Shown piece after piece: positions 33,741 through 53,456 of a DNA stretch of 64,000 nucleotides (positions are counted from its first letter, which is position 1; every line of letters starts with the position of its first letter). Source of the stretch: a phage; assembly GCA_022979955.1 (NCBI GenBank), contig GCA_022979955.1_3642.1, one strand, 5' to 3'. The position numbers and the translations under genes were made by a program. A model generated the notes under the pieces. It saw only the letters and a program-made list of their open reading frames with translations, was not told the origin of the DNA and did not search any database.

Positions 33741-34190
33741 AATGGATTTCCTCCTTTTGATATTTCACCGGGCCGGATATTTTAAAATTCTTAGAAAATC
33801 AGAAAATGGATCGAAAACTAAAATGGATTTTTCAGAGTAGGCGCGACAAGCTGAATAACTCATCCTATCGTTTGCACCATATTCCAGGCCACCATTATAG
33901 ATTTCCCACACATGCTAACCTCTCTCTACTAGAACTTCCTCCACTTACCCTTGACCTTCTATGGTAACAATCTAACCGCTATCTTGAAGTTGCGGTGCAG
34001 CTTTCCAGGTACTCGATCTACTTTTCATTTCAGGGCTTGGATTTTCTGAAAATTTTTCTCGATAAATTTCTCAGTACTCGATCTGTTTTTCGTTTTCTGA
34101 ATCGGATTTTCTGGAAATCGTTCCGGCTCTCAACCTGAAATTTTGGGGACGAAATCGATTTTTCGTTTTCAGAAATGGATTTTTAAAATT
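33741..34190. repeat. iteron-like short direct repeat cluster
   Basis: Recurring AAAATGGAT(T), GGATTTTCTG, GTACTCGATCT and TTTTCGTTTTC units in an ORF-free, AT-rich stretch. Confidence 0.5.
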
Positions 34191-34488: not shown

Positions 34489-34711
34489 CCGTCACCGGTG
34501 CCTGCCGTCCTTTCGATAGGTATATTGTGCCACCTGGCGGGGCCGCTGTCAACACTTTTCAAAAAATTTTTCTAACCTGATGCGCTAACCGCTGCAACCT
34601 GGCGGGGCCAGCCTGGCAGGACCTAACTGACCAGGTAGGAGAGAATGAAGGCTTGTAAACCTGGTGGGCCTATGCTATAGGAGAGGTAACAATTGAAGAG
34701 GAGGTACAAAA

Positions 34712-34888
34712 ATGGAAGGTAATATGATCCCCCTGGAAAATGTAGCTATTAATGACGCTGAGGCTATCGCCCTGGTTGAAAAGGCTATGGCGGGAGCGTT
34801 GGAATATAAAGAAGAGTACGAAAAAATGATGGTTAACCTGGCAGGGGCGGCGGCTGGAGAATTCCGCCCAAAAAATAATTTTAACTAA
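34712..34888 (+). CDS. small hypothetical protein (58 aa)
   Basis: ATG after GAGGAGG; first gene of the small-gene array. Confidence 0.4.
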   Translation: MEGNMIPLENVAINDAEAIALVEKAMAGALEYKEEYEKMMVNLAGAAAGEFRPKNNFN

Positions 34889-34891
34889 TGG

Positions 34892-34920
34892 TTGACAGCT
34901 CGGACAGTTCTTGTTATTCT
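34892..34920 (+). promoter_or_regulatory. sigma70-like promoter
   Basis: TTGACA-17-TATTCT. Confidence 0.5.
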
Positions 34921-34973
34921 TATCCTCACAAGGTGAACAACACCACACTAATTAACAGAGAGGATAAAAAATC

Positions 34974-35171
34974 ATGAACGCCTACGGAATCAAAGTACGT
35001 CGCAGCACTCGCCAGGTGGTCACCGATCAAATGGTTTGCCAGGTGGATGTAACCATCAACAACGGGCAAGGCCTTTATAAATTTCGTCGCGGTCATAGCT
35101 ATACCCTGCAACAGCTTAATCGTTGCGCCCTGACAAAAGGCCAGATCAACCACTGGTTTAATAAAAAATAA
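34974..35171 (+). CDS. hypothetical protein
   Basis: 65-aa basic ORF with AGAGGA SD. Confidence 0.45.
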   Translation: MNAYGIKVRRSTRQVVTDQMVCQVDVTINNGQGLYKFRRGHSYTLQQLNRCALTKGQINHWFNKK

Positions 35172-35174
35172 ATA

Positions 35175-35203
35175 TTGACATATAGTCTGACACAAAATAT
35201 ACT
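35175..35203 (+). promoter_or_regulatory. sigma70-like promoter
   Basis: TTGACA-17-TATACT. Confidence 0.55.
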
Positions 35204-35235
35204 GAAATCACAAAAGACACTAAGAGGATAAAATC

Positions 35236-35634
35236 ATGAAAACCACAACCTTTAATTTTGATAATGCCGACTTCTCTTTTTCTGATGTCAAGAACTGCCG
35301 CCGTGATCGTGGATTTTACAAGGCTTATAATCTGGTTGGCCTGGACGATGATAATAATTTGCACGAAGTAGCGGAGATCCGGTACTATGCCGCCGCCAGC
35401 GGTAACACTAACTATTGCGTTTTTTGGATACACGACAACAAGAACAATAAGTACGGTTATACTGGCGGCAAGGCGAGCGGTCACGGTTATGATAAAGCTA
35501 ACGCAGCACTTGAGAGCGCATTAAATGCTATGGGGATCACTGCCAACGGCTGGGTCTATGAAGAAGAGTTTTTGTCGGCACTTGCTGACCATCTAGGCTA
35601 TAAAAAGCACATTGTAACATGCGCCCACGAATAA
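35236..35634 (+). CDS. hypothetical protein
   Basis: 132-aa ORF with AAGAGGA SD. Confidence 0.45.
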   Translation: MKTTTFNFDNADFSFSDVKNCRRDRGFYKAYNLVGLDDDNNLHEVAEIRYYAAASGNTNYCVFWIHDNKNNKYGYTGGKASGHGYDKANAALESALNAMGITANGWVYEEEFLSALADHLGYKKHIVTCAHE

Positions 35635-35640
35635 AAATCA

Positions 35641-35668
35641 TTGACACGCTGCAAAATTTAAGTAAACT
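35641..35668 (+). promoter_or_regulatory. sigma70-like promoter
   Basis: TTGACA-16-TAAACT followed by leader hairpin GGGAA-TGT-TTCCC. Confidence 0.5.
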
Positions 35669-35716
35669 AGGCACAAAAGGTGGGAATGTTTCCCGCCAAC
35701 ACGAAGGAAAAAGATC

Positions 35717-36121
35717 ATGAATAAGAACATACGCCGCATCATGAACGAACTGGCAAACGATGAAAAAATTATTGACATGCATTTAGTCAACATTTGCCGC
35801 CGTTGTGTAACATATAACAACCGCGCCGCAAAAGCGCGTGAGATGAACGCAAAAGGCACCTTAAAGCCATTCCAGGTGGTGGTAAAGGCCATTAAAGATG
35901 TAACTAATACGGCAAACCAGGTACAGGGGAACACCAACGAGAGTACCAATATTGATCCGGCTTACATCATGAAACGGATCCGGACCTGCAAGAACAAAGA
36001 GCAAGTGTATAATGTCATAGACTGGTTGGATTCTATGGGCGATGTGGTTTACAATAGGTTTTCTGCAGCTATCGAGATCCAGCTTGACAGGTTGGACGGT
36101 AAAGTACTGAAAACTTACTAA
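35717..36121 (+). CDS. hypothetical protein
   Basis: 134-aa ORF with AAGGAAAAAG SD. Confidence 0.45.
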   Translation: MNKNIRRIMNELANDEKIIDMHLVNICRRCVTYNNRAAKAREMNAKGTLKPFQVVVKAIKDVTNTANQVQGNTNESTNIDPAYIMKRIRTCKNKEQVYNVIDWLDSMGDVVYNRFSAAIEIQLDRLDGKVLKTY

Positions 36122-36139
36122 GTTTATTTTTAGATGGCC

Positions 36140-36169
36140 TTGACTCCAGGGTCATCAATAAAGTAAACT
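36140..36169 (+). promoter_or_regulatory. promoter within repeated 50-nt cassette (copy A)
   Basis: TTGACT-18-TAAACT inside TTTATTTTTAGATGGCC-TTGACT-CCAGGGTCATC cassette. Confidence 0.5.
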
Positions 36170-36202
36170 AATCTCAACTAAGCGAAAAAGGGGGGCTTTA
36201 AG

Positions 36203-36322
36203 ATGAGCACTACACGCCAATACACAAAGGTAACTATTATCGTTTGCGTTGTCGGTTACATCCTGGCGCAAATGTTAATGAGTAGCGCTAACAGTTTTGC
36301 AAAATTTTTCTTAAATTTTTAA
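36203..36322 (+). CDS. small hydrophobic peptide (39 aa)
   Basis: ATG after AAAGGGGGG; predicted single TM helix; below ORF-track cut-off. Confidence 0.35.
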   Translation: MSTTRQYTKVTIIVCVVGYILAQMLMSSANSFAKFFLNF

Positions 36323-36350
36323 TTGACAAACTAACTTAGATCGATATACT
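36323..36350 (+). promoter_or_regulatory. sigma70-like promoter
   Basis: TTGACA-16-TATACT followed by leader hairpin GGGAAAACTTCCC. Confidence 0.55.
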
Positions 36351-36401
36351 TAAACACGTAAACGGGAAAACTTCCCAGAGCACACAAAAGGAGAAAACAC
36401 C

Positions 36402-36743
36402 ATGACTACTATGACCGCCGCAGAAAAAGCTATGCAGATCGCCGCGCTGAAAAAACAGATCGCAGACCTTGAGAATAAGATCGATAACTTTGAAATCGAC
36501 GAGGACAAGTACGACGAAAACTATGATGAATGGTTAGACGAGATCTACGGCGAAATCATGATCGGAAACATTTCTTTTCTTCCGTCGCGTATCCTCAAGG
36601 AGCTAGATCCTATCGCTTACCGCTGCGGATTTAGCGACTACATCGACAGCCTGGATATTGAGGACGATGAAGAATACCAGGAATTACAGACAGAGCTCGA
36701 AGAAGTGAAAGAAGAGCTTGCAGAACTGGAAGAAAACGAGTAA
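36402..36743 (+). CDS. highly acidic coiled-coil-like protein
   Basis: 113-aa ORF rich in D/E with AAGGAGA SD. Confidence 0.45.
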   Translation: MTTMTAAEKAMQIAALKKQIADLENKIDNFEIDEDKYDENYDEWLDEIYGEIMIGNISFLPSRILKELDPIAYRCGFSDYIDSLDIEDDEEYQELQTELEEVKEELAELEENE

Positions 36744-36761
36744 ATTTATTTTTAGATGGCC

Positions 36762-36791
36762 TTGACTTCAGGGCCATCAATAAAGTAAACT
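36762..36791 (+). promoter_or_regulatory. promoter within repeated 50-nt cassette (copy B)
   Basis: TTGACT-18-TAAACT; -35 hexamer sits between inverted repeat GATGGCC/GGCCATC. Confidence 0.5.
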
Positions 36792-36832
36792 TTAGACTGT
36801 TAACACTTAACCAATACAGAGGAGTTAAAACC

Positions 36833-37078
36833 ATGGCCGCACTAATTACCAAATATTATGCCCCTACCAACACCAAAAGCGCCCGTATCATGGTAAAAGG
36901 CTTCGGACGTAAAAAGGTTTACACCTGGGATTATGCCTTAGACACGGAAGACAACTACACCAACGCGATGACCGATTTTATTAATGATCTGAACACGCGG
37001 ATCTTAACAAATTATAAAATTACCGACATTGCTTATATAGGTGAAGGCGGGATCTGTTTTGTAGGCATTGTGAAATAG
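36833..37078 (+). CDS. hypothetical protein
   Basis: 81-aa ORF with GAGGAG SD. Confidence 0.45.
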   Translation: MAALITKYYAPTNTKSARIMVKGFGRKKVYTWDYALDTEDNYTNAMTDFINDLNTRILTNYKITDIAYIGEGGICFVGIVK

Positions 37079-37152
37079 TTATTTTTTCGGTGGTCCTGGC
37101 TGCAGGGCCATCTATAAAGATAATTTATTAACACAATGAAAGGAGAAAGTAC

Positions 37153-37506
37153 ATGATCAGCGGGGCAAGTTTTATTATTGGCGCTATTGCTACGGCTTTA
37201 ATTGTAAACAAGATCCAATCTAAAAACGAAAAAGAGAGCAACGCGCTCACAGAATACCCATTTTGGGTATTCAACGACAATGAAGACTACATTATCAAGT
37301 ACAAGAATGAGAAGGGCGACCAGGTAACACCGCGACCGATCCCAGCTTACAAGATGCAAGAAACACTATACCGCCTAAAGGCTGGAGGCGCAAAAATCGT
37401 AGACTTTTGGGGATATGATTGCAAGGATCAGGAGGTTATAAAACGGCGTATCCGGGCGATTCAGGCAAATATTGAAGTTAGCAAGGGGGGAATATATGAA
37501 GATTAA
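37153..37506 (+). CDS. hypothetical protein with N-terminal TM helix
   Basis: 117-aa ORF with AAAGGAGA SD. Confidence 0.45.
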   Translation: MISGASFIIGAIATALIVNKIQSKNEKESNALTEYPFWVFNDNEDYIIKYKNEKGDQVTPRPIPAYKMQETLYRLKAGGAKIVDFWGYDCKDQEVIKRRIRAIQANIEVSKGGIYED

Positions 37507-37693
37507 TTTTGAGAAGATTGTAAAGCGATCTCATGATTCCGAAGAGTTGCCGGAACGCCGCCAGCGCAACAATAAATTGAATAAGCCAAAAAGATTTGGG
37601 AAGATCTGGCGGAATCATTATGATCGTAAATTGCCGGGCCTACTTTTGGAACGTGAACGACAGGCGGAACGATACCGCCACAAAGGCAAATAA
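37496..37693 (+). CDS. small basic protein
   Basis: ATG after AAGGGGGG; overlaps upstream stop; Lys/Arg-rich. Confidence 0.4.
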   Translation: MKINFEKIVKRSHDSEELPERRQRNNKLNKPKRFGKIWRNHYDRKLPGLLLERERQAERYRHKGK

Positions 37694-37701
37694 CAACCAA
37701 C

Positions 37702-37730
37702 GCCCCGCCATTGTGCGGGGCTTTTTATTT
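37702..37730 (+). terminator. rho-independent terminator
   Basis: GCCCCGC-CATTGT-GCGGGGC hairpin followed by TTTTTATTT. Confidence 0.65.
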
Positions 37731-37851
37731 CTATCATACGAATAGCGCCCCTGGTTGGCCCTGTAAGCGCCAAAAAGGCCCCCACCTATGCAATCGCCCC
37801 CTTTAACCTGAAAACATCGCCCAGGGCCGTTTTATGGCGTTAAAAATATCA

Positions 37852-37879
37852 TTGACATCGTCAACAGGTTAGCTATACT
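37852..37879 (+). promoter_or_regulatory. sigma70-like promoter
   Basis: TTGACA-16-TATACT. Confidence 0.55.
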
Positions 37880-37911
37880 AACCACATCAAAGAGAGGAAG
37901 GAGTAAACGCC

Positions 37912-38172
37912 ATGCGTAAATTAAAAAATTTTGATAAAGTTGATGTTATCCTGAATAATTTTTACTACTGCAACAACAAGGCTATTTGGTGGCGTGATAG
38001 TTCCACCGATAAAGTCAAGGCGCGCTTTCTCCAAGGGCACTGGCAAGGCCGCCCAGTGATTAAAATCATGGGGCAATTGGTAGCGTTTAAAAATTGCCGC
38101 CGTGTTGATGACGTTGAGGAGATTTTAAACATTTTGCGCCACAATAATTTAAAAAATAGTGTTGACAAGTAA
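37912..38172 (+). CDS. hypothetical protein
   Basis: 86-aa ORF with GGAAGGAG SD. Confidence 0.45.
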   Translation: MRKLKNFDKVDVILNNFYYCNNKAIWWRDSSTDKVKARFLQGHWQGRPVIKIMGQLVAFKNCRRVDDVEEILNILRHNNLKNSVDK

Positions 38173-38189
38173 ATCTCAATAAGTATACT
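38162..38189 (+). promoter_or_regulatory. sigma70-like promoter
   Basis: TTGACA-16-TATACT followed by leader hairpin GGCGGGAA-AACT-TCCCGCC. Confidence 0.55.
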
Positions 38190-38246
38190 TAAACACACAG
38201 GCGGGAAAACTTCCCGCCACTAACAAAGAAAATAGGAGAAAATATC

Positions 38247-38870
38247 ATGACCACCGTTAACATTACCGCAGGTTACAATTTATCTTTCGACGTGCTGACC
38301 GACGAACAAAAAGAAAAAGCTATTGAAATGGTCCGCGAAAGAGAAGAACACAGTGGGGATAACTTTTTTGCAGAAAGTGTAATTGAATACTATAAAGAAT
38401 ATGTTTTTCCAGAGTACGGGCTTGAAGATACAAAAGTACATTGGTCAGGCTTTTGGTGCCAGGGTGACGGCGCGTCAATCAGTGCGGAAAACGTGGATTT
38501 AGAAAAATTCTTGCGTAAAGTCAAGTCTCTGACTAAATTCCGCTCAATTCGTCGCTTGTTCGGCACAATGCACGATGGCGAACTATCCGCAAGTGTTGAG
38601 CGTGATCCATATAGCCGCTATAGTCACGAAAACACTGTAAGCGGGTACATCGATACTACATGGCTAGACCTGACCGCCAAACAAGAAAATAAAGTGGAAG
38701 ATCTGGAAGAGCTGATCACCGAGACGGTACGGGAGCTATCCCGCAAGGTTTACGTAGACCTGGAGGAGGCCTATCTAGAACAGTTCACTACCGAAAACCT
38801 GATCGGCCTTATTGAGGCCAATGATTGGCGGTTTGATGTAGATGAATATGGAGAGATGAGTTTTTCATAA
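38247..38870 (+). CDS. hypothetical protein
   Basis: 207-aa acidic ORF with TAGGAGA SD. Confidence 0.5.
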   Translation: MTTVNITAGYNLSFDVLTDEQKEKAIEMVREREEHSGDNFFAESVIEYYKEYVFPEYGLEDTKVHWSGFWCQGDGASISAENVDLEKFLRKVKSLTKFRSIRRLFGTMHDGELSASVERDPYSRYSHENTVSGYIDTTWLDLTAKQENKVEDLEELITETVRELSRKVYVDLEEAYLEQFTTENLIGLIEANDWRFDVDEYGEMSFS

Positions 38871-38959
38871 ATAAAGTGTTGCAATAATCTAAAAACCTGC
38901 TATATTAAAACTCAAGGGGCAAGACGTTTGCCCCCACACAAAACAAAGAGGAAAACATC

Positions 38960-39340
38960 ATGAAAAACACTACTAAAGCTATTGACACCGTCATGTTTAA
39001 CCTAGTTACCTTTCGCGAGGATATGAAAGATCTTCCACGTGAAACAGTGTGCGATCACATTGAAAACTATCGCAAACTAATCAAAGAGTTGCCTTTAAAA
39101 CGTGATCAGTATGCGGCTAACGCCATGCTTAATGCCATGATCAAAAAGATGATCCAGTGTGATTTAACTCTGGCCTATGACTATGCGGGTGGTCGTTTTG
39201 CAGTATACAATCAGCCCGTGCCCGGTATGGGCACCACCGAAGAATTGCACGCGTTAAATCTGAAGCAAGATGTATGGGATAACATGCCCCGCGTGGTGGT
39301 GTGGGCAGAAAGCGGAAAGATTTACGGCGATAATTTTTAA
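38960..39340 (+). CDS. hypothetical protein
   Basis: 126-aa ORF with AAGAGGA SD; leader hairpin GGGGCAA-GACG-TTTGCCCC upstream. Confidence 0.45.
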   Translation: MKNTTKAIDTVMFNLVTFREDMKDLPRETVCDHIENYRKLIKELPLKRDQYAANAMLNAMIKKMIQCDLTLAYDYAGGRFAVYNQPVPGMGTTEELHALNLKQDVWDNMPRVVVWAESGKIYGDNF

Positions 39341-39350
39341 TCAGGTAACA

Positions 39351-39376
39351 GGCGGCATATTTGCCGCCTTATTGTT
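39351..39376 (+). terminator. rho-independent terminator
   Basis: GGCGGCA-TATT-TGCCGCC hairpin followed by TTATTGTT. Confidence 0.55.
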
Positions 39377-39404
39377 AAACAGAACTGCAAAAGAGGTACA
39401 TAGA

Positions 39405-39776
39405 ATGGAATTTATTATTTTGGCTGTAGTAGTTGCCTTGTTCAACGCCTGGATCGCTGGCAAGATAGGTAGATCCGCTTTTCTATGGTTTGTTATATCT
39501 ATTTTCCTGGGAGTGGTTGCAACTATTGTATTGGTTATCCTTGCAATTGTTGACAAGGGCGATAATAGAAAGGGTAAAGTGTTTTCCGACCTGTATGACG
39601 CACAAACGTTTGTCAACGCCTATTATAGTGATCTTCCAGTCTCCCTACGCTGCAGCCTGGCACAACAGGTTTTTGATGAGGCTAAAACCAGAGACCAAGC
39701 CCATGAGATATGTTTAACTGAGGCGGATCGCCTATTTGAGAGGAATAGAAAATATGTGGACCAGCCGTTTAAATAA
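39405..39776 (+). CDS. membrane protein (two predicted TM helices)
   Basis: ATG after AAAGAGG; longer ORF start at 39270 would overlap upstream gene and terminator. Confidence 0.45.
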   Translation: MEFIILAVVVALFNAWIAGKIGRSAFLWFVISIFLGVVATIVLVILAIVDKGDNRKGKVFSDLYDAQTFVNAYYSDLPVSLRCSLAQQVFDEAKTRDQAHEICLTEADRLFERNRKYVDQPFK

Positions 39777-39999
39777 CGCCACGTTAATTAATCCCTTTAG
39801 TGAAGATTTGAAGCCAGCCGCCTGGCGTGACGGATTCAATAACGAACGCTTTATTTTCAGGCCTGATCTTGAGGAATTTTATAACAATGGATCGAACAAC
39901 AGCGGAGATAATTTTTCTTGTGATGTGCGTGGTGATGGTACTCCTGGGGGCCATTGTAAACCACGTCACTACTACCAGGAGGAAAGGGGGAGACGATGA
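39754..39999 (+). CDS. hypothetical protein (uncertain frame choice)
   Basis: ATG after GAGAGGAA; an alternative overlapping frame encodes a 41-aa TM peptide. Confidence 0.3.
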   Translation: MWTSRLNNATLINPFSEDLKPAAWRDGFNNERFIFRPDLEEFYNNGSNNSGDNFSCDVRGDGTPGGHCKPRHYYQEERGRR

Positions 40000-40040
40000 C
40001 AACCAAGGATAAGCCCCGCACCGATAAGGTGCGCCAGGTT

Positions 40041-40115
40041 ATGGTATGGCTTGAGATCATCGCCCTTGAAATATTGTTAGGGGTAGGAATGTACTTTATT
40101 GCTATAAGTAACTGA
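40041..40115 (+). CDS. small hydrophobic peptide (24 aa)
   Basis: ATG 9 nt after AAGGTG; followed by terminator. Confidence 0.3.
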   Translation: MVWLEIIALEILLGVGMYFIAISN

Positions 40116-40120
40116 TAACG

Positions 40121-40148
40121 CCCCCGATCATGGGGGCTTAACTTTTTC
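40121..40148 (+). terminator. rho-independent terminator
   Basis: CCCCC-GATCAT-GGGGG hairpin followed by CTTAACTTTTTC. Confidence 0.55.
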
Positions 40149-40254
40149 AAAAAATTTTTCTTCCAGGGTGTTGCAATCTGGTCCGCAATATGGATAATAA
40201 CAATCAACGGGGAAACATCCCCACCAACACAAAAACCAGAAAGGAGAAACAAAA

Positions 40255-40455
40255 ATGAGCAACAATATCCGCGTTATTAACTTCAAAAAAGAAGAAAAAA
40301 TTGCCGTGCTGATTGACGGTCAAGAAATATTCAAGGGGTATTATGAAGATCATCAAACGGCGATTAGTATCACTCGCGTGATTGGTTACCATAATTTTTA
40401 CCCTCAAGGCGCTGAGGCAGCAGTAAAACGAATTAAAGAGATTGTAGGCCTGTAA
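40255..40455 (+). CDS. hypothetical protein
   Basis: 66-aa ORF with AAAGGAGA SD; leader hairpin GGGGAAACATCCCC; promoter-like TTGCAA-17-ATAATA upstream. Confidence 0.45.
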   Translation: MSNNIRVINFKKEEKIAVLIDGQEIFKGYYEDHQTAISITRVIGYHNFYPQGAEAAVKRIKEIVGL

Positions 40456-40474
40456 AATTTATTTTTAGATGGCC

Positions 40475-40504
40475 TTGACTCCAGGGCCATCAATAAAGTA
40501 AATT
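40475..40504 (+). promoter_or_regulatory. promoter within repeated 50-nt cassette (copy C)
   Basis: TTGACT-18-TAAATT; identical GATGGCC-TTGACT-CCAGGGCCATC core to copy B. Confidence 0.5.
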
Positions 40505-40546
40505 TAAACCCTGTTAAAATAATCAGTGCAAAAAGGAGTAATGATC

Positions 40547-40846
40547 ATGTTTATCCAGGCTAATAATCTTTATTTCTTTGATGGTCAGATCGTAGACGGC
40601 GTGGAGGTGGAAATCACCGGGTGCCCTGGCGGTCAGGTTATGACTTTTCGGAATAATGCCTTTGATGATTCTCATATCGTTATGAGAATGGAAGTTAGTA
40701 AGCTGGATGACAAGAAAACACTTATCGACTATTCCGTCAAAGATCATCCAGACTACCACATGATCTATGGTGATTTGTGCATTGTTGACCGTGACAAGGT
40801 GAACGGCATTGTTATAGCCATTGTGAACGATGTTTTCTCTGAATAA
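40547..40846 (+). CDS. hypothetical protein
   Basis: ATG 8 nt after AAGGAG. Confidence 0.45.
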   Translation: MFIQANNLYFFDGQIVDGVEVEITGCPGGQVMTFRNNAFDDSHIVMRMEVSKLDDKKTLIDYSVKDHPDYHMIYGDLCIVDRDKVNGIVIAIVNDVFSE

Positions 40847-41069
40847 TTCCGGCAAATGATGCAAAATAAGGCCCCTAGCAGGGCCTGCAGCGATATAATC
40901 ACATAAAGGCTATGCGGTTGCATGTCCTTTATTATTTTAGCGTTACAGCGGCCCCAAGGCGCTTAAAAAAATTTTTAAAGAAGTACTTGCATCAAGCCCT
41001 ACAATATGGATAATAGGACGTGTCAGGGGGAGGCCCCAATCATTAACCGGATAGATAGGAGTTAAAACC

Positions 41070-41354
41070 ATGGCTATTGTTACCGCTGGCGATGTAGTAG
41101 AAATGGAAGCAAAATACTTAAAAGCGGGTATGCATATCCTACGCAACGATCTTGAACTGGTCCTGACAATGGTTGACTATAACCCAGGGCAAGATTATCC
41201 AAGTGTTGACTACTTTTTTGAGTATGTTGATGAAGAGTTGAAAGAGGATGAGGCCTATTGCGGTGAGTTCTGCAACTTCTTTTGTCCTGATGAGGTTGTA
41301 AAGGTTATCTATCAACCTGGCGTAGCTTTCCCGCTGCACGCTATCAATAAATAA
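41070..41354 (+). CDS. hypothetical acidic protein
   Basis: 94-aa ORF with TAGGAG SD. Confidence 0.45.
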   Translation: MAIVTAGDVVEMEAKYLKAGMHILRNDLELVLTMVDYNPGQDYPSVDYFFEYVDEELKEDEAYCGEFCNFFCPDEVVKVIYQPGVAFPLHAINK

Positions 41355-41416
41355 ACCTGGCGGGGCCGAAAAGGCCCCCGCCTGAAATTATGAAAAATAA
41401 AAAGAGGCAAACTATC

Positions 41417-41650
41417 ATGATGGAACAAATTAAACGCGCTGAGGCTATTAATGGCAATGTGATCTATTTTGTCAGCAAAAACGAAAAAGGCGTACCCTAT
41501 GCGGCGGTAATAGTACAGCCTGACGGCGATTATTGGTGCACTGTGTACGGCGCTTATTCTTTTGGGCGTCCAGTGCATGATAAAATTTTGAAAGTAGCGA
41601 ACCCTACCGGGAAAAATATTACAGCAGAAAAATTTTTTGAAAATAGTTGA
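41417..41650 (+). CDS. hypothetical protein
   Basis: ATG after AAAGAGG; longer ORF start lacks SD. Confidence 0.4.
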   Translation: MMEQIKRAEAINGNVIYFVSKNEKGVPYAAVIVQPDGDYWCTVYGAYSFGRPVHDKILKVANPTGKNITAEKFFENS

Positions 41651-41674
41651 CATGACCATATAAAACTGTAGTAT
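41647..41674 (+). promoter_or_regulatory. sigma70-like promoter
   Basis: TTGACA-16-TAGTAT with TG upstream of -10; leader hairpin GGGGGC-AACAA-GCCCC follows. Confidence 0.5.
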
Positions 41675-41725
41675 ATAAATCAAAGGGGGCAACAAGCCCC
41701 ACCAACCACAAAGAGGATAAAAATC

Positions 41726-41905
41726 ATGGCTATTATTGCAAAGACTGAGATCGTAGGCTTAGATTCTATTCTCCTCGCATATGAGGAAGCTATAGAAATG
41801 TATGTAGTTTCCTATGGTGAGTATATCCGTGAATATAAATCTATTGATCTGGCTTTTGAATGTTATATTCGCCAGGTAAATAAAGCATATGATGATTATC
41901 GTTAA
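41726..41905 (+). CDS. small hypothetical protein (59 aa)
   Basis: ATG after AAGAGGA; below ORF-track cut-off. Confidence 0.4.
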   Translation: MAIIAKTEIVGLDSILLAYEEAIEMYVVSYGEYIREYKSIDLAFECYIRQVNKAYDDYR

Positions 41906-41911
41906 AATAGT

Positions 41912-41939
41912 TTGACAACAATTACAAATCGGGTAGAAT
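41912..41939 (+). promoter_or_regulatory. sigma70-like promoter
   Basis: TTGACA-16-TAGAAT. Confidence 0.5.
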
Positions 41940-41996
41940 GTATTTCGTAGGGGAGACAAGCGCCCCATTAAACGCAACAGGAAGAGGATAAACACC

Positions 41997-42242
41997 ATGA
42001 AAAGCAATAAAGGTTATAACGGTTACAAAAACAAAACTCATTGGAATGTAAGCCTTTGGATTAATAACGATGAGTCATTGTACCGGTTGGCCCAAGGCTT
42101 TATTAACGCTAATGCTAATCGTAATGATGCGGCGCGGGATATGATGCTTTTTCTGGAGCTAACCGGACAAGATAAGACCCCGGACGGCTTCAAGTACAGC
42201 ACTACGGCGATCCGTTCCGCGATGGTTGGAATGAAACACTAA
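41997..42242 (+). CDS. hypothetical protein
   Basis: 81-aa ORF with AAGAGGA SD. Confidence 0.45.
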   Translation: MKSNKGYNGYKNKTHWNVSLWINNDESLYRLAQGFINANANRNDAARDMMLFLELTGQDKTPDGFKYSTTAIRSAMVGMKH

Positions 42243-42319
42243 AAGCACATAGCCGCCTTACCCTGGGGCTGTAGTAGCGGCCCCATGAATAAGGTTACTA
42301 ACAGAAGAGAATAAACACC

Positions 42320-42424
42320 ATGAAACAGAAATTAATCGATGCAGTGATCTTGGTTATTGCCCTTGGTATTGGCCTGATTGCAACCATGTCTAATATGATC
42401 TTGTCTTCCAACGGTATCGGGTGA
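42320..42424 (+). CDS. small hydrophobic peptide (34 aa)
   Basis: ATG after AGAAGAGA; single predicted TM helix. Confidence 0.35.
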   Translation: MKQKLIDAVILVIALGIGLIATMSNMILSSNGIG

Positions 42425-42433
42425 GGTTGGCAA

Positions 42434-42649
42434 ATGATCACTAACAAAACAGGCAAAACAGAATTTTTACGCGGCTTGCAAATAGGTAAGCCTGAGATCT
42501 GGCATTGCACTAAAACACCACGCGACGAAATGAAAGACTTTACCGCCACGCTGAAGCGGGTAAAGATATCCATTACGCAGAAAAAAGCCTTGATAGTGGT
42601 GGAAGGTGAGATCCCTCAAGCCGTTGTTATAGTTGAGCGTACAGCATAG
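42434..42649 (+). CDS. hypothetical protein
   Basis: 71-aa ORF with GGTGAGG SD. Confidence 0.4.
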   Translation: MITNKTGKTEFLRGLQIGKPEIWHCTKTPRDEMKDFTATLKRVKISITQKKALIVVEGEIPQAVVIVERTA

Positions 42650-42740
42650 TTTAATTTATACCGATACCCGAAAATTAACCAACAAAGCATAAACAGGCGG
42701 TTGCCGCCGCCTTAAACGTAGCAGAAAGAGGATAGATACA

Positions 42741-43025
42741 ATGAAAAAGATGATCGCAGTGGTTGCCCTGGTTGTTGGACTTAATGCGCCTGTAATGGCC
42801 AAAGAGCTGGCAAAAGAGGTAGATCTAACTGATATCCATGCCGTCAATCAAATCGGTGTTACTTATCGCCTATGCCTTGCCGCTAAAACTTTCCAGGATG
42901 GCACGACAGAGTACTACGGATTCGAGGGCGTTCGGTGCGGTGAACTTGCTCACGACCTTAAAGAAGATCCAGACCTGGAGGATCTGCCGATAACCGTAAA
43001 CGGGAAAACTTACGTGAACCGTTAA
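42741..43025 (+). CDS. secreted small protein (signal peptide)
   Basis: N-terminal MKKMIAVVALVVGLNAPVMA signal-peptide-like sequence; AAGAGGA SD. Confidence 0.45.
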   Translation: MKKMIAVVALVVGLNAPVMAKELAKEVDLTDIHAVNQIGVTYRLCLAAKTFQDGTTEYYGFEGVRCGELAHDLKEDPDLEDLPITVNGKTYVNR

Positions 43026-43027
43026 CC

Positions 43028-43162
43028 ATGAGAAAGATAATTATTACCATTGGGATCGTGGCGGCAATGTTGGCGATCTTTCCCTTTATGGTTAGGTATG
43101 TGCTGATTAATGTTGTCCTGGTAGTCAGTGATCTGGTGTTATATATTAACTCATTGTTTTAG
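43028..43162 (+). CDS. small hydrophobic peptide (44 aa)
   Basis: ATG 2 nt after upstream stop; no clear SD; two hydrophobic segments. Confidence 0.3.
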   Translation: MRKIIITIGIVAAMLAIFPFMVRYVLINVVLVVSDLVLYINSLF

Positions 43163-43170
43163 GCGCGATA

Positions 43171-43362
43171 ATGACAGCGGAAGAAGTTAAAAAAGTACTG
43201 GCGGTACTGCGTTATCATAATCATTGCAAGGTGAAGAATGATCCTGATTATCTTGATTCATCCCTTGAAGAGGATACACTACAAGCCATAAGCAACATGC
43301 AAGAATTGCTTAAGCGTATGACAGAGAAAAACCGACCGGACTACATAGGGGGTAAAATATGA
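43171..43362 (+). CDS. hypothetical protein
   Basis: 63-aa ORF. Confidence 0.4.
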   Translation: MTAEEVKKVLAVLRYHNHCKVKNDPDYLDSSLEEDTLQAISNMQELLKRMTEKNRPDYIGGKI

Positions 43363-43670
43363 TCGCTATTACGCCAACCGTTTTAGATTGGTATCGGCAA
43401 CGCATAGCGCCTCCGCTGGCTATCTTCAAAGATGCGGAAGCAAAACAACGCCGGATCTCAATACATGAGATCATCAACCTTAACGCCGGAGGCACACCAT
43501 ACCGCCCAGGACCTGGCCGTGAGATGGACAATACGTTAGCGATCCTGAAGATACGCCGTAAACGGTCCTCCCTTACTCTGGACTCATTACACACAATGCA
43601 GCCTCCGTTCCAGGTGACCGGGAAACGGATCGCCAGGTCCTGGACAAAGGCCAATGATCGGACCGTATAA
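43359..43670 (+). CDS. hypothetical protein
   Basis: 103-aa ORF, ATGA overlap, GGGGG SD. Confidence 0.45.
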   Translation: MIAITPTVLDWYRQRIAPPLAIFKDAEAKQRRISIHEIINLNAGGTPYRPGPGREMDNTLAILKIRRKRSSLTLDSLHTMQPPFQVTGKRIARSWTKANDRTV

Positions 43671-43699
43671 ATAAAAGTGTTTTGGTACTGATTTTGGGG

Positions 43700-43728
43700 T
43701 TGACTTGTTCGGCCCCTTTTGCTATTCT
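43700..43728 (+). promoter_or_regulatory. sigma70-like promoter
   Basis: TTGACT-17-TATTCT, immediately upstream of repeat copy 3. Confidence 0.45.
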
Positions 43729-43756
43729 TATTAAACGGGCGGCACTTGGGAACAGG

Positions 43757-43779
43757 GGGAGACAATCACCGGGCCTGCC
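43757..43779 (-). repeat. 23-nt repeat, copy 3 (inverted)
   Basis: GGGAGACAATCACCGGGCCTGCC is the exact reverse complement of 34332-34354. Confidence 0.6.
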
Positions 43780-43804
43780 TGTCATATAAGAACTATAAAA
43801 ACCG

Positions 43805-43833
43805 TTGACATCTGCCATGGGGTGAGGTAACAT
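43805..43833 (+). promoter_or_regulatory. sigma70-like promoter
   Basis: TTGACA-17-TAACAT followed by leader hairpin GGGCA-AAAG-TGCCC. Confidence 0.5.
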
Positions 43834-43887
43834 TTATCTTGAAGGGGCAAAAGTGCCCACACAACAACCAGGAGAGAGGAAAACACT

Positions 43888-44160
43888 ATGTCAAGCTGGA
43901 TTAATCAAGAAGTCGAATCACGTTTTAATGCTATTTGGGATCTCATCGAAAAAGAGGACGGAACATCAAGCCCCTATCTCAACAATTTGGAATTCCATTT
44001 TGTGGAAGCGATGAACGCAGAACATGATCACGAAGGTGGCGCGGATGAGTTCGCTAAAGGTTATGGCTTTAACAATGCCAACGAAATGATCGAGGCGGTC
44101 GTACTCCAAGCTGAGGAAGATTATCAATTAAAAACGCTTGAATTCTGCCGCCATAAGTAA
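43888..44160 (+). CDS. hypothetical protein
   Basis: 90-aa acidic ORF with GGAGAGAGGA SD. Confidence 0.45.
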   Translation: MSSWINQEVESRFNAIWDLIEKEDGTSSPYLNNLEFHFVEAMNAEHDHEGGADEFAKGYGFNNANEMIEAVVLQAEEDYQLKTLEFCRHK

Positions 44161-44220
44161 TAAGATAATGACACGGGCCAAAAGGCCCACTAATCAGAAC
44201 CGCACAAAGAGGTAAACATC

Positions 44221-44484
44221 ATGAAACGTCTTGATCAGCTCAAATTAGTTCAATATATGGCTTATCGTGTTCTTGAAGTCCAGAAAGGTAGCAAAAAAGA
44301 GGTTTGCGAGAAAGCTTATAAGATCTTCACTCGCAAAAAAGATGACTGGATGCTACGCCAGACTAAAAAGGCTGACATCTTGGGGTACCTGGAAGAAGAG
44401 ATCCGCCTTGAAGAGCAAGAAGAGATCCGCCGTAGTGAGGCAGATTATCAGGCAGCTTGGGAAAACTGGATGAGCAACAAATAA
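44221..44484 (+). CDS. hypothetical protein
   Basis: 87-aa charged ORF with AAGAGG SD; leader hairpin GGGCC-AAAA-GGCCC. Confidence 0.45.
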   Translation: MKRLDQLKLVQYMAYRVLEVQKGSKKEVCEKAYKIFTRKKDDWMLRQTKKADILGYLEEEIRLEEQEEIRRSEADYQAAWENWMSNK

Positions 44485-44540
44485 TACAACAAGTTACATG
44501 GTCAGGGGCAATAAAGCCCCTTGATCACATAAAAATTATG

Positions 44541-44569
44541 CTATCCCTGGTTGACAGGGATCGGCAGTT
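44541..44569 (+). promoter_or_regulatory. sigma70-like promoter with palindrome around -35
   Basis: TTGACA-17-TATATT; TCCCTG/CAGGGA inverted repeat flanks the -35. Confidence 0.5.
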
Positions 44570-44627
44570 TTGCTATATTCTTTTTGAAGGGAAGTTGTAA
44601 GAAAATTAACTAAGAGGTAAAAACACC

Positions 44628-45047
44628 ATGAACATTAAATCTAATAATCCGGCATATAGCTTTGATAACGCTTTTTGTCACGGTCCGGCGGCGAAAGGAT
44701 TCGAAATCGATGGTAAACTAATTATTGTCAATGTTGACGGGGAAGAGGTTGCAGTATATCCGGTGGCAGACGTAAAAAGCCGTTTACAATGCCGCATGGA
44801 TGTTACCGCCTATCAGCTTGATCCGGTCCGCATAGTTGCCCTGGTCCTGGAAGAAGAAATTAAAGCCATGCACCATAGCAACAGATTTATTGGTGACGCG
44901 CAGGATAATATGAAAGTATGCCGCCATAAAGTTAATGAAGTGCTTAAAGAGTACGGCTATAGAGATCTTATGATCAAACGTGAGGAAAAATTCCGCTACC
45001 GTAACGACCTGGCAAATCGGATTTTTGAAATATACGAATCATTATAA
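44628..45047 (+). CDS. hypothetical protein
   Basis: 139-aa ORF with AAGAGG SD; last gene of plus-strand array. Confidence 0.45.
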   Translation: MNIKSNNPAYSFDNAFCHGPAAKGFEIDGKLIIVNVDGEEVAVYPVADVKSRLQCRMDVTAYQLDPVRIVALVLEEEIKAMHHSNRFIGDAQDNMKVCRHKVNEVLKEYGYRDLMIKREEKFRYRNDLANRIFEIYESL

Positions 45048-45065
45048 TTTTTTAACTGAATTATC

Positions 45066-45092
45066 AAGGGGCTTAGGCCCCTTTCTTTTTGT
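45066..45092 (+). terminator. rho-independent terminator
   Basis: AAGGGGC-TTAG-GCCCCTT hairpin followed by TCTTTTTGT. Confidence 0.65.
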
Positions 45093-45689
45093 CTGCTCTT
45101 CTCCTACCATAAACGGCCCTACCTGGCAAGTGGAATAATTGACTAGCCATCAATCCCACATACTGTACAAATATACATGGAAAATAACTATTGCATAATT
45201 TTTCATTGTGTGGTAGCAAGTCCATTTTTACCCGTTTTCTCTCCCAAAAGTGCACGTAATGCCGCTATTGCACAAATTTTAACCTGATGCACATCTCTAA
45301 TATCTTGTCAACAACTAAAAATCTTTATAAGTCATACACTTACACAGCATCGAAAGCGTGTTCTACGCGAAAAATCGAGTATAACTATAGCCGCCAGATC
45401 TCAGAATTCACGTACGCACGCCATTCTATAGCCTGCAAAGTATTTATTCCAACCACAGAATAACGGAATAGTCAATACCTGCATAAAATAATTATTCGTG
45501 TAAACTGCATAACATAAATCAGCTCAGGTGTCAACATTTTTCGTAAACAGTTCGAAATTGTCACGGTAAGTTATTATACACAGAGAAATCTTTAGTCGTC
45601 TAATGGTTACTATACATTACTAATCTGACTGGAATCATTAGATGACTAATAGAAAGATAAGAAATAATTAACAGTCTAATTATATTAAC

Positions 45690-45970
45690 GATAACAATAA
45701 CAGCGGTTAAAGTCATGGCGCGACGGAGTCGCGACATAATAACACCGAGTAACCCTCACCCCCGTGAGCGTTGCGAATGTTATTATGCCATGACTAAATC
45801 ATTTCAACACGTAACTATAGGCATAACAACATTCCCTCGGTGTTATTATGTCGCTAGTTATTATATAACTGTTAACAATAACGCCTCGGGAATAGTTCTG
45901 CCTGCACGATGTTTATAACAGCAAGTTATGATCAACATTTCACAGATTATAATAACAGCGGTTAAAGTCA
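45690..45970. repeat. direct-repeat pair flanking a 19-bp inverted repeat
   Basis: AATAACAGCGGTTAAAGTCA exact at 45696-45715 and 45951-45970; inside, GCGACATAATAACACCGAG (45731-45749) and its reverse complement (45836-45854). Confidence 0.6.
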
Positions 45971-46597
45971 GGCGTAGAAACAGTGGAAGTGTAAACAGTC
46001 AATCATGTAAATGATAAGTATGTGAACAGTTATCCATGTAAACTATTAGACATGTAAACAATCAGGTGTGCAAAAGTGTCAAGGGTGTCACCATTGTGTC
46101 TAAAGTGTCGTATGTCATCAGTATGTCAGACAAGTTTTTCTCCTCTTTGTCAAGTGCTGCATGAAAAATTTACAATCTTGTATGGTAGCATTTTTGCGGT
46201 CCTGTTTACATTCAGAGATGTATGTATAATCCTTGTTGTGTGGGCGTTTAGACGTCTAGACGGTCAGAAGTCTGCAGGTCAATATCTAATCTATTGGCTG
46301 CTAACTATATCCCACACAAATAGTAAGAAATATAATTGTTATATGCGTAAACAGTAACCCATGTTATCAATCCCTGTATGGATCGCCAGTGGTGCGCATA
46401 ATGGGTATTATGTTAAATTGCCCGTAATGATAATGGTTCTCACAATGATATGTATTCTCATTCCCCCACACAAAATAGATTGCAAATGTTGTGCCACTAT
46501 GTGAACGGCCTCACCTATTAATTTGCCTCACTGCCTCGATATTTGAGAATTATTATAAGAATGAGAAGTATTCCCATTTCGTCCGCCTGGCAGCGCT

Positions 46598-46657
46598 CCT
46601 GTAGGTCCTGCAAGGACTCTAGCTGAAAGCTAGACCCTTCGGGCCTCCCTGTAGGTC
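46598..46657. other. three consecutive tetraloop hairpins bracketed by CCTGTAGGTC direct repeats
   Basis: GTCCT-GCA-AGGAC, CTAGC-TGAAA-GCTAG, CCC-TTCG-GGG; CCTGTAGGTC at 46598 and 46648. Confidence 0.4.
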
Positions 46658-46705
46658 AGGTCAAAATCGTGGTAGAATTGGGCCTATTCAGATATTTCTG
46701 GCTGG

Positions 46706-46900
46706 CTCTTCAGGTCTGTGTGGGAAAAGCCAACCTCTCCGGCGGGGCAGGGGGAGGTAAATTAAAAAATTTACGGGGTATATGAAGCGCTCTTCAGGTA
46801 AGGCATGTACTATGGGATGAAACCCTCTTCAGGCAATGATATTTGTGGGTGTGATATTTGCTGGAAAGCCAGATATGACGGGACTCCCGGCGGGGCAGGG
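46706..46900. repeat. degenerate tandem unit CTCTTCAGG...CCGGCGGGGCAGGG
   Basis: CTCTTCAGG at 46706, 46790, 46825 (also 47238, 47886); CCGGCGGGGCAGGG at 46739 and 46887. Confidence 0.55.
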
Positions 46901-47596
46901 GTAGTACAGACAGGGAAAATATGAGAATGTAGTTGGGGAAATTGATCAGACAGGTAGAGTATGGAATATGTTACAAGTATGTTAAATATGGAGGTTGAAT
47001 ATCTGTAGGATTTGTGTGTAAAATCAAAGACTTAAGGGGTGTTGTGGTATTTTCTATAAATAATTCAAGTTTAATAGGCAATATTTGTCTCTATCCGCTT
47101 TGTGTGGTAAACAGATTCAGATTAGATTGGTTTACAAGTGTATACATAATATACAAATTAAAGATACAAGAAACCCCCCTCCCCCTTCGGCTACCATTCA
47201 CCTTTTCCTCTGACTGGTACTTAAACACTTATTCAGACTCTTCAGGTTATCACCCATATATCATATGGCAGTGACTGGTGTCCTCCGGCCCCTCTTTCGT
47301 CACCCGTCCGCTTCGCCATGCTAATGCCATAGCTAATGGTTCGGTTGTTCACCCTGTTCACTCAGGTGTATCTCTATACCCCTTCAAACCGAAGAGAACA
47401 GAAAACCCGAATTACTCGGTAAAAGAAAAGAGAAGAACTTAATTTTATCAGGATAGGCAAGAATGTCAAGGCATGACTGCTCACTAAACAAGCAAACAGT
47501 CATGTGTGGGAGGTAAGTGATTGTGGTGGTAGGAAATTTAGTTGAAAGATGTGTTATAGGTGCTTCCAGCACTTTAGCCTGGCAGCTAATTGTGTG

Positions 47597-53091: not shown

Positions 53092-53409
53092 TCAATCCCA
53101 AAAGTCAATCTTTACTTTACCTTTTCCCTTACCTTTCTTTCCACCGCATTTAGCCAACTGGCGTGCTGCAACATCCACCATACGGTCAGTTGCCTCGTAA
53201 GCATCGCTACCTTTAGCTTTGGCGATAACTTCTTTCCCAGAATTGTCAAAAATAAAAGCCATAACTTCCTGGTGATCATTTTCAACTTTTACACTCACAC
53301 GTGCATAGTTGGCAGAGGGGTGCAAGCGCTCCAGCTTGGACATTTTGTGGGAAATGAAAGACACCATACCTTCAGTGATCTCTACGTTGCCAGTGATTTC
53401 AATCTGCAT
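53092..53409 (-). CDS. hpf: ribosome hibernation promoting factor (HPF/RaiA family)
   Basis: MQIEITGNVEITEGM...KLER...VKVE...AKGSDAYEATDRMVDVAARQLAK closely follows bacterial HPF/YfiA sequence pattern as recalled; Lys/Gly-rich tail. Confidence 0.8.
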   Translation of the reverse strand: MQIEITGNVEITEGMVSFISHKMSKLERLHPSANYARVSVKVENDHQEVMAFIFDNSGKEVIAKAKGSDAYEATDRMVDVAARQLAKCGGKKGKGKGKVKIDFWD

Positions 53410-53456
53410 AACGTGCTCCTTTTAAAGAAGAGGGAACCAAACCCTCTTTGAAAATA

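Follow-up and report, generated by a model that had tools for sequence, protein, structure and literature searches.

An array of small genes in an rV5-like coliphage

The DNA considered here is a 64,000-nucleotide (nt) stretch of phage sequence (GenBank assembly GCA_022979955.1, contig GCA_022979955.1_3642.1), referred to below as the window. Our subject is its region 34700-45050, in which small genes are preceded by a repeated cassette consisting of a promoter, a GC-rich hairpin, a tract rich in A and C, and a Shine-Dalgarno sequence (SD). The region is 94% identical over its full length to Vequintavirus (rV5-like) coliphages, among them ECP2303, naam, rV5_ev168, and Murica, and 307 phage records match it in a sequence search. 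On sequence grounds, the window belongs to an rV5-like Escherichia coli phage of the genus Vequintavirus (Vequintavirinae). The matching records annotate the region as about 28 to 30 hypothetical proteins with some predicted terminators and ribosome-binding sites, and software-predicted promoters are also present in one of them. For rV5 itself, the genome paper gives 33 sigma-70-type promoters along with 20 terminators and leaves leader hairpins unmentioned (PMC3606486), and the papers on the related Certrevirus CB7 and the jumbo phage CBB report only sigma-70-like early promoters, grouped among small open reading frames (ORFs).

The region holds 30 small genes (34712-45047), all on the + strand, as the original prediction of about 30 genes had it. 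Their products range from 34 to 207 amino acids (median, 83.5), 22 intergenic gaps are at least 50 nt long, and 7 of the 30 genes overlap or abut the preceding gene. All 30 products match PHROG families over nearly their whole length, which argues that the genes are real; the function of all 30 families is unknown. Pfam matches were limited to g09 (T7 gp1.1 family, PF08200) and g21 (DUF7249), and 28 of the 30 products lack an informative match in the PHROG and Pfam searches. The suggestion that the array resembles a host-takeover module is reasonable by analogy, but most of its proteins give it no direct backing.

Promoters and hairpins occur together far more often than expected by chance

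We defined strong promoters as matches to TTGACA-N16-18-TATAAT at no fewer than 10 of the 12 positions and used dinucleotide shuffles as the control. The + strand of the array holds 10 such promoters, compared with 0.74 ± 0.81 in the shuffles (maximum, 3); at a loose threshold there are 51 promoter-like sites versus 33 expected. The 22 nt upstream of the -35 box are AT rich (79% A+T versus 57% for the region), and an UP-like word, TTTTCAAAAAATTTTTCT, recurs among the array repeats.

Promoters followed by a GC hairpin within 7 to 14 nt form 12 composites, compared with 0.59 ± 0.74 in the shuffles, and composites with at least 4 G-C pairs number 9 versus 0.09. Their hairpin starts pile up 10 to 14 nt after the -10 box. 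The promoter-plus-hairpin design is thus real and far above chance. After one double count and one intragenic site were set aside, the full design of promoter, hairpin, tract, and SD remained in 11 leaders, those of g02 (weak), g04, g06, g11, g12, g16, g18, g20, g21, g28, and g29, so the predicted number of at least 11 leaders holds. The accompanying statement that nearly every small ORF has its own promoter goes too far: a recognizable promoter precedes only 17 of the 30 genes.

Nor are hairpins confined to promoters. A hairpin of -8 kcal/mol or stronger is present in 18 of the 22 gaps of at least 50 nt, compared with 5% of length-matched coding windows. By arrangement, 11 gaps have a promoter and then a hairpin, 6 have a hairpin around the -35 or -10 box, 4 (before g13, g19, g22, and g24) have a hairpin and no promoter, and 1 (before g03) has a promoter and no hairpin.

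Anatomy of the leader

Each cassette spans about 80 to 100 nt and has a fixed order. An UP-like, AT-rich stretch and a sigma-70 promoter close to the consensus are followed by a conserved pyrimidine-purine start step and a GC hairpin whose first arm carries the G run; next come an A/C-rich stretch unable to pair with itself, a strong SD, and a stereotyped start of the form AAAACAYC-ATG-A. The pyrimidine-purine step is conserved at +7/+8, placing the predicted start 8 nt after the -10 box. In 11 leaders the hairpin begins 9 to 14 nt after the last base of the -10 box, i.e., at about +2 to +7 of the predicted transcript and not 10 to 30 nt into it as first proposed, and the whole leader hairpin occupies about +3 to +28. 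Because it lies downstream of the predicted start site, the hairpin would be part of the transcript. Stems are 4 to 9 bp long, and predicted energies range from -3 to -16 kcal/mol. Ahead of the hairpin, the predicted unpaired 5' tails in 12 leaders measure 1, 2, 3, 3, 3, 3, 4, 4, 4, 4, 4, and 6 nt (median, 3.5), values that depend on the true start site.

In the stretch that separates the hairpin from the SD, the leaders consist of 56% A, 27% C, 7% G, and 9% T (n = 161), compared with 33, 20, 23, and 25%, respectively, for the region. The A+C content of 83% versus an expected 52% (binomial P = 1.6e-16), together with a CACAA, ACACA, ACAAA, or AACAC word in 9 of 12 tracts, bears out the predicted A/C-rich tract following the hairpin. 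The block from the SD to the ATG is stereotyped as well and corresponds to the repeat AAAGAGGAAAACAYCATGA, present in 9 copies at no less than 79% identity. When the 12 predicted leaders were folded, the hairpin was the sole structure and the SD and start codon were open in 9.

Layout of individual cassettes

Among the cassettes with the full design, that before g02 (34892-34973) combines TTGACA-17-TATTCT with a weak hairpin (34932-34944; -3.0 kcal/mol), an A/C tract, and an SD. The cassettes before g04 (35641-35716; TTGACA-16-TAAACT; hairpin 35679-35697, -11.2 kcal/mol), g06 (36323-36401; TTGACA-16-TATACT; hairpin 36364-36376), and g11 (38162-38246; TTGACA-16-TATACT; hairpin 38200-38218, -13.1 kcal/mol) follow the same plan, and those of g06 and g11 are 74% identical over 54 nt. 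Before g12 (38879-38959), TTGCAA-16-TATATT is followed by a hairpin at 38916-38934 (-11.1 kcal/mol) and the tract CACACAAAACAAA. The remaining cassettes of this kind lie before g16 (40171-40254; TTGCAA-16-GATAAT; hairpin 40209-40222), g18 (40987-41069; TTGCAT-16-GATAAT; hairpin 41026-41037), g20 (41647-41725; TTGACA-16-TAGTAT; hairpin 41686-41700), g21 (41912-41996; TTGACA-16-TAGAAT; hairpin 41950-41966), g28 (43805-43887; TTGACA-17-TAACAT; hairpin 43845-43858), and g29 (44138-44220; TTGAAT-17-TAAGAT; hairpin 44175-44188).

The six hairpins around promoter boxes include a 51-nt repeat in four copies. In copy 1, before g05 (36120-36170), the hairpin at 36133-36156 encloses the -35 box TTGACT, with TAAACT as the -10 box; copies 2 (before g07, 36742-36792) and 4 (before g17, 40455-40505) likewise have their hairpins around the -35 box, at 36755-36778 and 40468-40491, respectively. 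Copy 3, before g08 (37076-37126; hairpin 37089-37112), is degenerate and has lost the promoter. Before g10 (37852-37911; TTGACA-16-TATACT) the hairpin at 37867-37883 overlaps the -10 box, and before g30 (44543-44627) a hairpin at 44543-44561 encloses the -35 box of TTGACA-17-TATATT. The promoter and leader before g03 (35175-35235; TTGACA-17-TATACT) represent the sole gap of at least 50 nt that has no hairpin.

Hairpins with no promoter lie between g12 and g13 (39350-39369, with a T-rich, terminator-like tail), between g18 and g19 (41359-41382), before g22 (42264-42285), and before g24 (42695-42712). Canonical terminators follow g09 (37702-37721; 7 G-C pairs and the tail TTTTTATT) and close the array (45066-45083). 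Terminator-like hairpins are found after g15 (40120-40137), upstream of the g16 promoter, and after g27 (43696-43716), where a hairpin with a T-rich tail encloses a TTGACT box.

The design extends to a few genes outside the array. The original prediction named three, and the DNA methylase gene fits fully, with a leader at 16461-16544 (+ strand; promoter at 16461, hairpin 16501-16518, tract ACAAAAACT). The leader of the hpf-like gene (53410-53485, - strand) has the promoter (53485-53457) and the hairpin (53448-53428) but no A/C tract, and the polymerase gene has a hairpin immediately before its SD (22643-22668, + strand) but lacks an adjacent promoter. At strong promoters in the rest of the window the leaders are short and hairpin-free, so the element appears to be a property of the small-gene array.

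Surroundings of the array

Several other features of the window were recorded. Just upstream of the array, at 34002-34183, a unit of about 65 to 73 nt (ATCT..TTTTC.TTTTC...GGATTTT) is repeated in tandem, with two to three copies, where there is no convincing gene; Tandem Repeats Finder did not score it. The 12-mer CCTGGCGGGGCC has three exact copies on the + strand (34533, 34598, and 41356) and near matches at 34612, 34837, 40874, and 46886; with up to 2 mismatches it occurs 8 times versus 1.8 expected, mostly in noncoding DNA around the array. Three long gaps of about 220 nt, at 40847-41069, 37694-37851, and 43671-43804, are also conserved among relatives. They carry additional GC hairpins as well as GC-rich stretches and might be small RNAs or the remnants of genes. 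At the other end, where the + strand array meets a - strand gene block, about 2 kb (approximately 45100-47400) has no long ORF. This stretch corresponds to a "noncoding" box on the genome map of the rV5 paper, and its left end is the terminator at 45066-45083.

No tRNA genes were found in the region, and Rfam at the gathering score had no match in the array region. Its sole match in the window, at 25100-25335 (+ strand; RF00028, 64.7 bits, E = 4e-14), is a group I intron whose start falls right at the end of ORF 22686-25115, which encodes the family A DNA polymerase; this gene thus appears to be split by the intron. The hpf-like gene (53092-53409, - strand) encodes a protein resembling ribosome hibernation factors (Pfam Ribosomal_S30AE, E = 1.8e-12); a consensus promoter and a leader hairpin of its own precede it. 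The array region is also 93 to 96% identical to about 22 records that carry the name "Campylobacter phage"; the one that was opened, A112b, is marked UNVERIFIED, and the assignment of these records to a Campylobacter host is doubtful.

Conservation of the hairpin and its occurrence in other phages

Among 15 Vequintavirus relatives, pairwise differences per site were 0.189 in loops, 0.075 in stems, and 0.071 to 0.087 in flanks, so that loops change 2.5 times as fast as stems. Nearly all hairpin variants in these relatives still fold, and several stems have been rebuilt with other bases, for example, GGGG/CCCC to GGAGG/CCTCC before g18 and GGGGCAAG to GGCGGGCGAG, with a matching 3' arm, before g12. 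Because stems keep folding while their sequence changes and loops vary faster than stems, hairpin pairing is probably under selection. Covariation among close orthologues amounted to one two-sided pair change in each of two alignments and none in a third, with divergence low and the alignments disturbed by the G and C runs, which often change length among relatives.

The cassette is not confined to close relatives. The coding-strand counts of composites are 16 for Phapecoctavirus 536P1, 14 for Justusliebigvirus muut, 15 for LTH01, 5 for SSBI34, and 3 for CR9, compared with 0 to 1 on the opposite strand of each, and on both strands the G-first orientation tracks the direction of transcription. 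In the jumbo phage 121Q (Asteriusvirus; 350 kb), which is unrelated, 14 kb holds 10 composites. Cassettes are thus also present in Stephanstirmvirinae and Asteriusvirus, and the layout is more regular in distant phages than in the window. Across eight loci, 58 of 63 hairpins start 9 to 15 nt after the -10 box, whereas the distance from hairpin to SD is looser (10.9 ± 4.2 nt). Two hairpin families, GGCGGGAA-N3-TTCCCGCC and GGGCGGCA-ATGG-TGCCGCTC, dominate in the relatives and recur in unrelated phages. In IMG/VR, a protein-based search found 8 loci, 2 of them close, and a scan for the cassette pattern found 14 stretches on 11 contigs, with about half of the stretches coming from contigs of about 100 to 150 kb.

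Individual genes of the array likewise have homologues in distant phages. The genes g12 (38991-39326) and g21 (42025-42233), which lie 3 kb apart in the window, are neighbors in 121Q (6001-6672 of the stretch examined), with 73% and 85% nucleotide identity, respectively. The T7-like phage CLB_P1 has a homologue of g19 (41417-41650) in its early region, gp0.15, with 75% nucleotide identity over 196 nt; a promoter-like site is present there, and the hairpin cassette was not found at gp0.15 (452-772 of the stretch examined). Separately, the first 540 nt of MT119359, "Enterococcus phage heks," hold a g12 homologue (76% nucleotide identity) behind a promoter-hairpin cassette of the coliphage type, with a second cassette beside it. 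This end has the look of a chimeric assembly or of contamination; if it is neither, the transfer would be a surprising one.

Gene gain, loss, and exchange

The gene content of the array varies among the 15 relatives, and the junctions fall in cassette repeats. In phage V18, the leader that precedes g21 in the window joins g22 directly, and the junction is the 22-nt SD-ATG repeat GAAGAGGATAAACACCATGAAA; the g21 cassette and the hairpin before g22 mark the left and right edges of this gain/loss unit. In phage Gotham, an extra gene is joined at the CACAAAGAGG leader before g29 and lies within that leader, and one IMG/VR relative carries an extra 590 nt whose junction is the -35 TTGACA in the promoter of g10. 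Further breakpoints among relatives lie at 41921, 42300, 43717 (where several insertion/deletion junctions coincide, directly after the g27 hairpin), and 44197-44216. Of the junctions, three were read base by base, and they map to the -35 box, to the SD, or to the ATG repeat and not to a hairpin. A caveat on the location of junctions in cassettes is that viable insertions and deletions are expected in intergenic DNA anyway.

Exchange also crosses family boundaries. LTH01 (Vequintavirinae) and 121Q (Asteriusvirus) share six segments of 70 to 334 nt with 79 to 90% identity and in permuted order; one of them comprises a whole cassette plus a gene start, and another comprises little beyond the cassette.

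Possible functions of the hairpin

The closest known element, which the interpretation in the original prediction missed, is the promoter-early stem-loop (PeSL) cassette of the T4-like phages RB49/phi1, PST/T4, and nt-1/KVP40 (Arbiol et al. 2010, PMC2839356; Comeau et al. 2014, PMC4122927). In a PeSL, AT-rich DNA precedes a strong sigma-70 promoter, the stem-loop has the form GGGG...CCCC, and the 3' end supplies the SD and the start; such cassettes occupy hyperplastic regions full of ORFans, with the hairpin in five registers relative to the promoter, and the authors proposed that they act as terminators or attenuators and as recombination linkers (PMC2839356). By their anatomy, the array cassettes are PeSL-type cassettes, i.e., a known mobile regulatory kind, outside the T4-like phages. 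PeSL cassettes were previously described only in T4-like phages, although an earlier mention in the PVP-SE1 or phi92 genome paper is possible.

We therefore favor, with moderate confidence, a reading of the region as a hyperplastic early-gene array of PeSL-type cassettes in which the hairpin serves as a general RNA "punctuation" and the repeated cassette doubles as a recombination linker. Judging by the promoter match, unmodified host RNA polymerase would fire at each cassette right after infection, and the spacing and folding suggest that the first 20 or so nt of each mRNA would then fold into the hairpin. As a punctuation mark, the hairpin may give each short early mRNA a structured 5'-proximal end, shield the open ribosome-binding site from upstream sequence, read-through transcripts included, and stop 3' exonucleases on transcripts arriving from upstream. 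In silico, it does not behave as a canonical terminator. At the DNA level, the junction sequences show that homologous recombination uses the repeated cassette to add, remove, and reorder single genes, and the shared, permuted segments show that the same recombination moves cassette-plus-gene units between unrelated coliphage families.

The original prediction had offered two roles for the element, an mRNA-stabilizing 5' stem-loop and a shared translational operator. For the stabilizer, the hairpin does lie within the predicted transcript, its pairing is kept while the sequence changes, and the SD and ATG are open in 9 of 12 leaders, but the unpaired tail of 1 to 6 nt weakens the case, and the role is plausible without being proven. 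Because loops and stems alike vary between leaders, an operator recognized by its sequence is unlikely.

Several points weigh against the punctuation reading. Every RNA-level step of the model is inferred. Protection of the 5' end from RppH and RNase E is borderline at the predicted median tail of 3.5 nt, because these enzymes need only 2 unpaired 5' nt, with 3 or more preferred (PMC8833179), and RNase E readily bypasses an ordinary stem-loop (PMC9943677). The constant register could come from common descent of the cassettes rather than from selection. Stem mismatches of the G-T type are about as frequent as those of the A-C type (5 versus 5 outside the core helix and 11 versus 8 at the loop end), a balance that speaks neither for nor against selection on the RNA strand. 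The strong promoters elsewhere in the window manage with hairpin-free leaders, so the hairpin is not generally needed for expression. In RB49 the hairpin sits inside the promoter and cannot act on its own transcript, so a function shared with the window would have to be something else. Finally, a stem-loop of RB49 with no U-tract has marked activity in a reporter, which leads to the first alternative.

The PeSL authors' view is that the hairpins are transcription attenuators or terminators, which would damp read-through from the many upstream promoters and perhaps the cassette's own very strong promoter, so that small, possibly toxic early proteins are not overmade. The RB49 PeSL211/210 stem-loop lowered downstream lacZ expression as much as rrnB T1 did, and native PeSL promoters are hard to clone (PMC2839356); the tail of this tested stem-loop, ATACTACACAC, likewise lacks a U-tract. 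In the window, the occurrence of one hairpin per intergenic gap whether a promoter is present or not, including the four promoterless hairpins, fits this view. However, a hairpin downstream of its promoter gives no protection from occlusion and would act on its own transcript too. T makes up 10 of the 96 positions (10%) in the first 8 nt after the 12 leader hairpins, compared with 28 of 40 (70%) after five terminator-like hairpins of the region, and the A/C-only tail looks selected to avoid termination. Moreover, the g16, g18, and g28 leaders keep a hairpin after the promoter though the upstream gene already ends in its own terminator-type hairpin, which argues that leader hairpins belong to the downstream unit. 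We give attenuation a low, though not negligible, probability. Canonical intrinsic termination, as a separate candidate, was rejected on the missing U-tract, and a terminator scan of the + strand called no leader hairpin.

A second alternative gives the hairpin a more active part in exchange: the cassettes would be the joints of a cross-family traffic in gene cassettes among virulent coliphages, with the hairpin recognized either as a folded-DNA recombination site like the attC sites of integrons or as a 5' RNA mark read by a factor. Such traffic would span the rV5-like, phi92/phAPEC8-like, 121Q-like jumbo, and RB49-like phages, and a 5' RNA mark, if true, would mean that a dedicated factor tells early phage mRNAs from host mRNAs. 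The permuted cassette-plus-gene units shared between unrelated families and the recurrence of the same hairpin families across phages bear on this idea; none of the evidence bearing on it shows a recombinase or hairpin-binding factor, and we give active recognition only a small chance.

It is also doubtful that the hairpin, as RNA or DNA, is the binding site of a phage or host regulator that switches the early class together, in the manner of T4 RegA and RegB or of an early-transcription shut-off factor. In favor of this are the restriction of the element to a single class of genes (the array together with the genes for the methylase and hpf) and the recurrence, in unrelated phages, of the two hairpin families that dominate in the relatives. 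Against this, stems and loops in the window differ between leaders, loops are the fastest-changing part, recombination between cassettes explains the sequence sharing, and PHROG and Pfam searches of the phage proteins identified no candidate RNA-binding protein.

We judge it similarly improbable that the hairpins play no part in expression and are either DNA-only inverted repeats that promote recombination or replication slippage between cassettes or relics of one copied ancestral cassette. The gain/loss junctions in cassette repeats, the changing lengths of the G and C runs, a lineage-specific register of the kind that descent predicts, and the PeSL authors' speculation that GGGG...CCCC is a target of recombination proteins (PMC2839356) are all compatible with such an origin. 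The junctions read in detail nevertheless fall outside the hairpin, pairing is kept while the sequence changes and loops evolve faster than stems, the G-first orientation follows transcription on both strands, and the composition of the A/C tract points to selection on RNA. Chance or a by-product of composition can practically be discarded, as it has only the general frequency of weak promoter-like sites in its favor and is already refuted by the shuffles for strong promoters and composites, by the gap controls, and by repetition of the design in six phage lineages.

The same anatomy in the window shows PeSL cassettes to be general components of the early regions of large virulent coliphages, regions that change fast and are home to most of the genes of unknown function. 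An rV5-like phage, phi92-, phAPEC8-, and LTH01-like phages, and a 350-kb jumbo phage all have it, and the single early genes likely include anti-defense and host-takeover functions. The junction sequences offer a concrete mechanism for the gain and loss of early genes and their passage between unrelated phages. With the hairpin at the start of its own mRNA in the Vequintavirus lineage, the role of the PeSL stem-loop becomes testable with simple reporters. The cassettes are also compact, strong, self-contained expression units and may serve as markers of early genes in new genomes.

Comparison with known systems

Hairpins processed by RNase III punctuate the early genes of T7 and end up at mRNA ends, and RNase III needs a duplex of about 20 bp. 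The array resembles that system in the punctuation of an early multigene region and differs from it in that each unit has its own promoter and the stems are only 4 to 9 bp long; RNase III sites were rejected on stem length. N4-type hairpin promoters have their hairpins upstream of the start site, and a virion RNA polymerase reads them. This candidate was also rejected, as the sigma-70 promoter in the window precedes the hairpin. In T4, Srd stimulates RNase E. An Srd homologue is reported for rV5 (PMC3606486); Pfam gave no match in the small ORFs at 7854-9453, and we make no claim of a link.

Intrinsic terminators share with the leader hairpins a short GC-rich stem in an intergenic gap, and the region has its five T-rich-tailed examples, but the leader hairpins stand just downstream of a promoter and run into A/C-rich sequence. 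The 5' untranslated regions of ompA and papA of E. coli are among the 5'-terminal stem-loop stabilizers of mRNA (Emory, Bouvet, and Belasco 1992, as listed in PMC3997798). Like these, the leaders have a stable hairpin near the predicted mRNA 5' end followed by an open ribosome-binding site; protection needs fewer than 2 to 3 unpaired 5' nt, and the predicted tails in the window are 1 to 6 nt (median, 3.5).

The PeSL cassettes of T4-like phages are the closest match. In common with them, the window has a near-consensus sigma-70 promoter with AT-rich DNA upstream, a G-run...C-run stem-loop joined to that promoter, and an SD and start at the 3' end of an A/C-rich leader (...CCCAACACAAAACAAAAGGAG in RB49 and ...CCCCCACACAAAACAAAGAGG in the window). 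One cassette is assigned to each small ORF of unknown function in a hyperplastic region, and insertion/deletion junctions between close relatives fall in cassette repeats. The registers seen in the window (downstream of the -10 box, over the -35 box, and over the -10 box, with six hairpins around one or other box) are all within the five described. What differs is the host range of the element and not its anatomy, as the window comes from a Vequintavirinae phage and the PeSL hosts so far from Straboviridae.

Two further points concern register and function. Terminator activity and mini-circles, small circular DNAs arising by recombination between neighboring cassettes, were shown for RB49/phi1 (PMC2839356). 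In the RB49 hyperplastic region, the same scan placed 10 of 12 hairpins in the spacer of the promoter and only one at the transcript start, compared with 44 of 47 at the transcript start in the window, three relatives, and 121Q. Because of this location, the window-type hairpin would be part of the mRNA of its own cassette.

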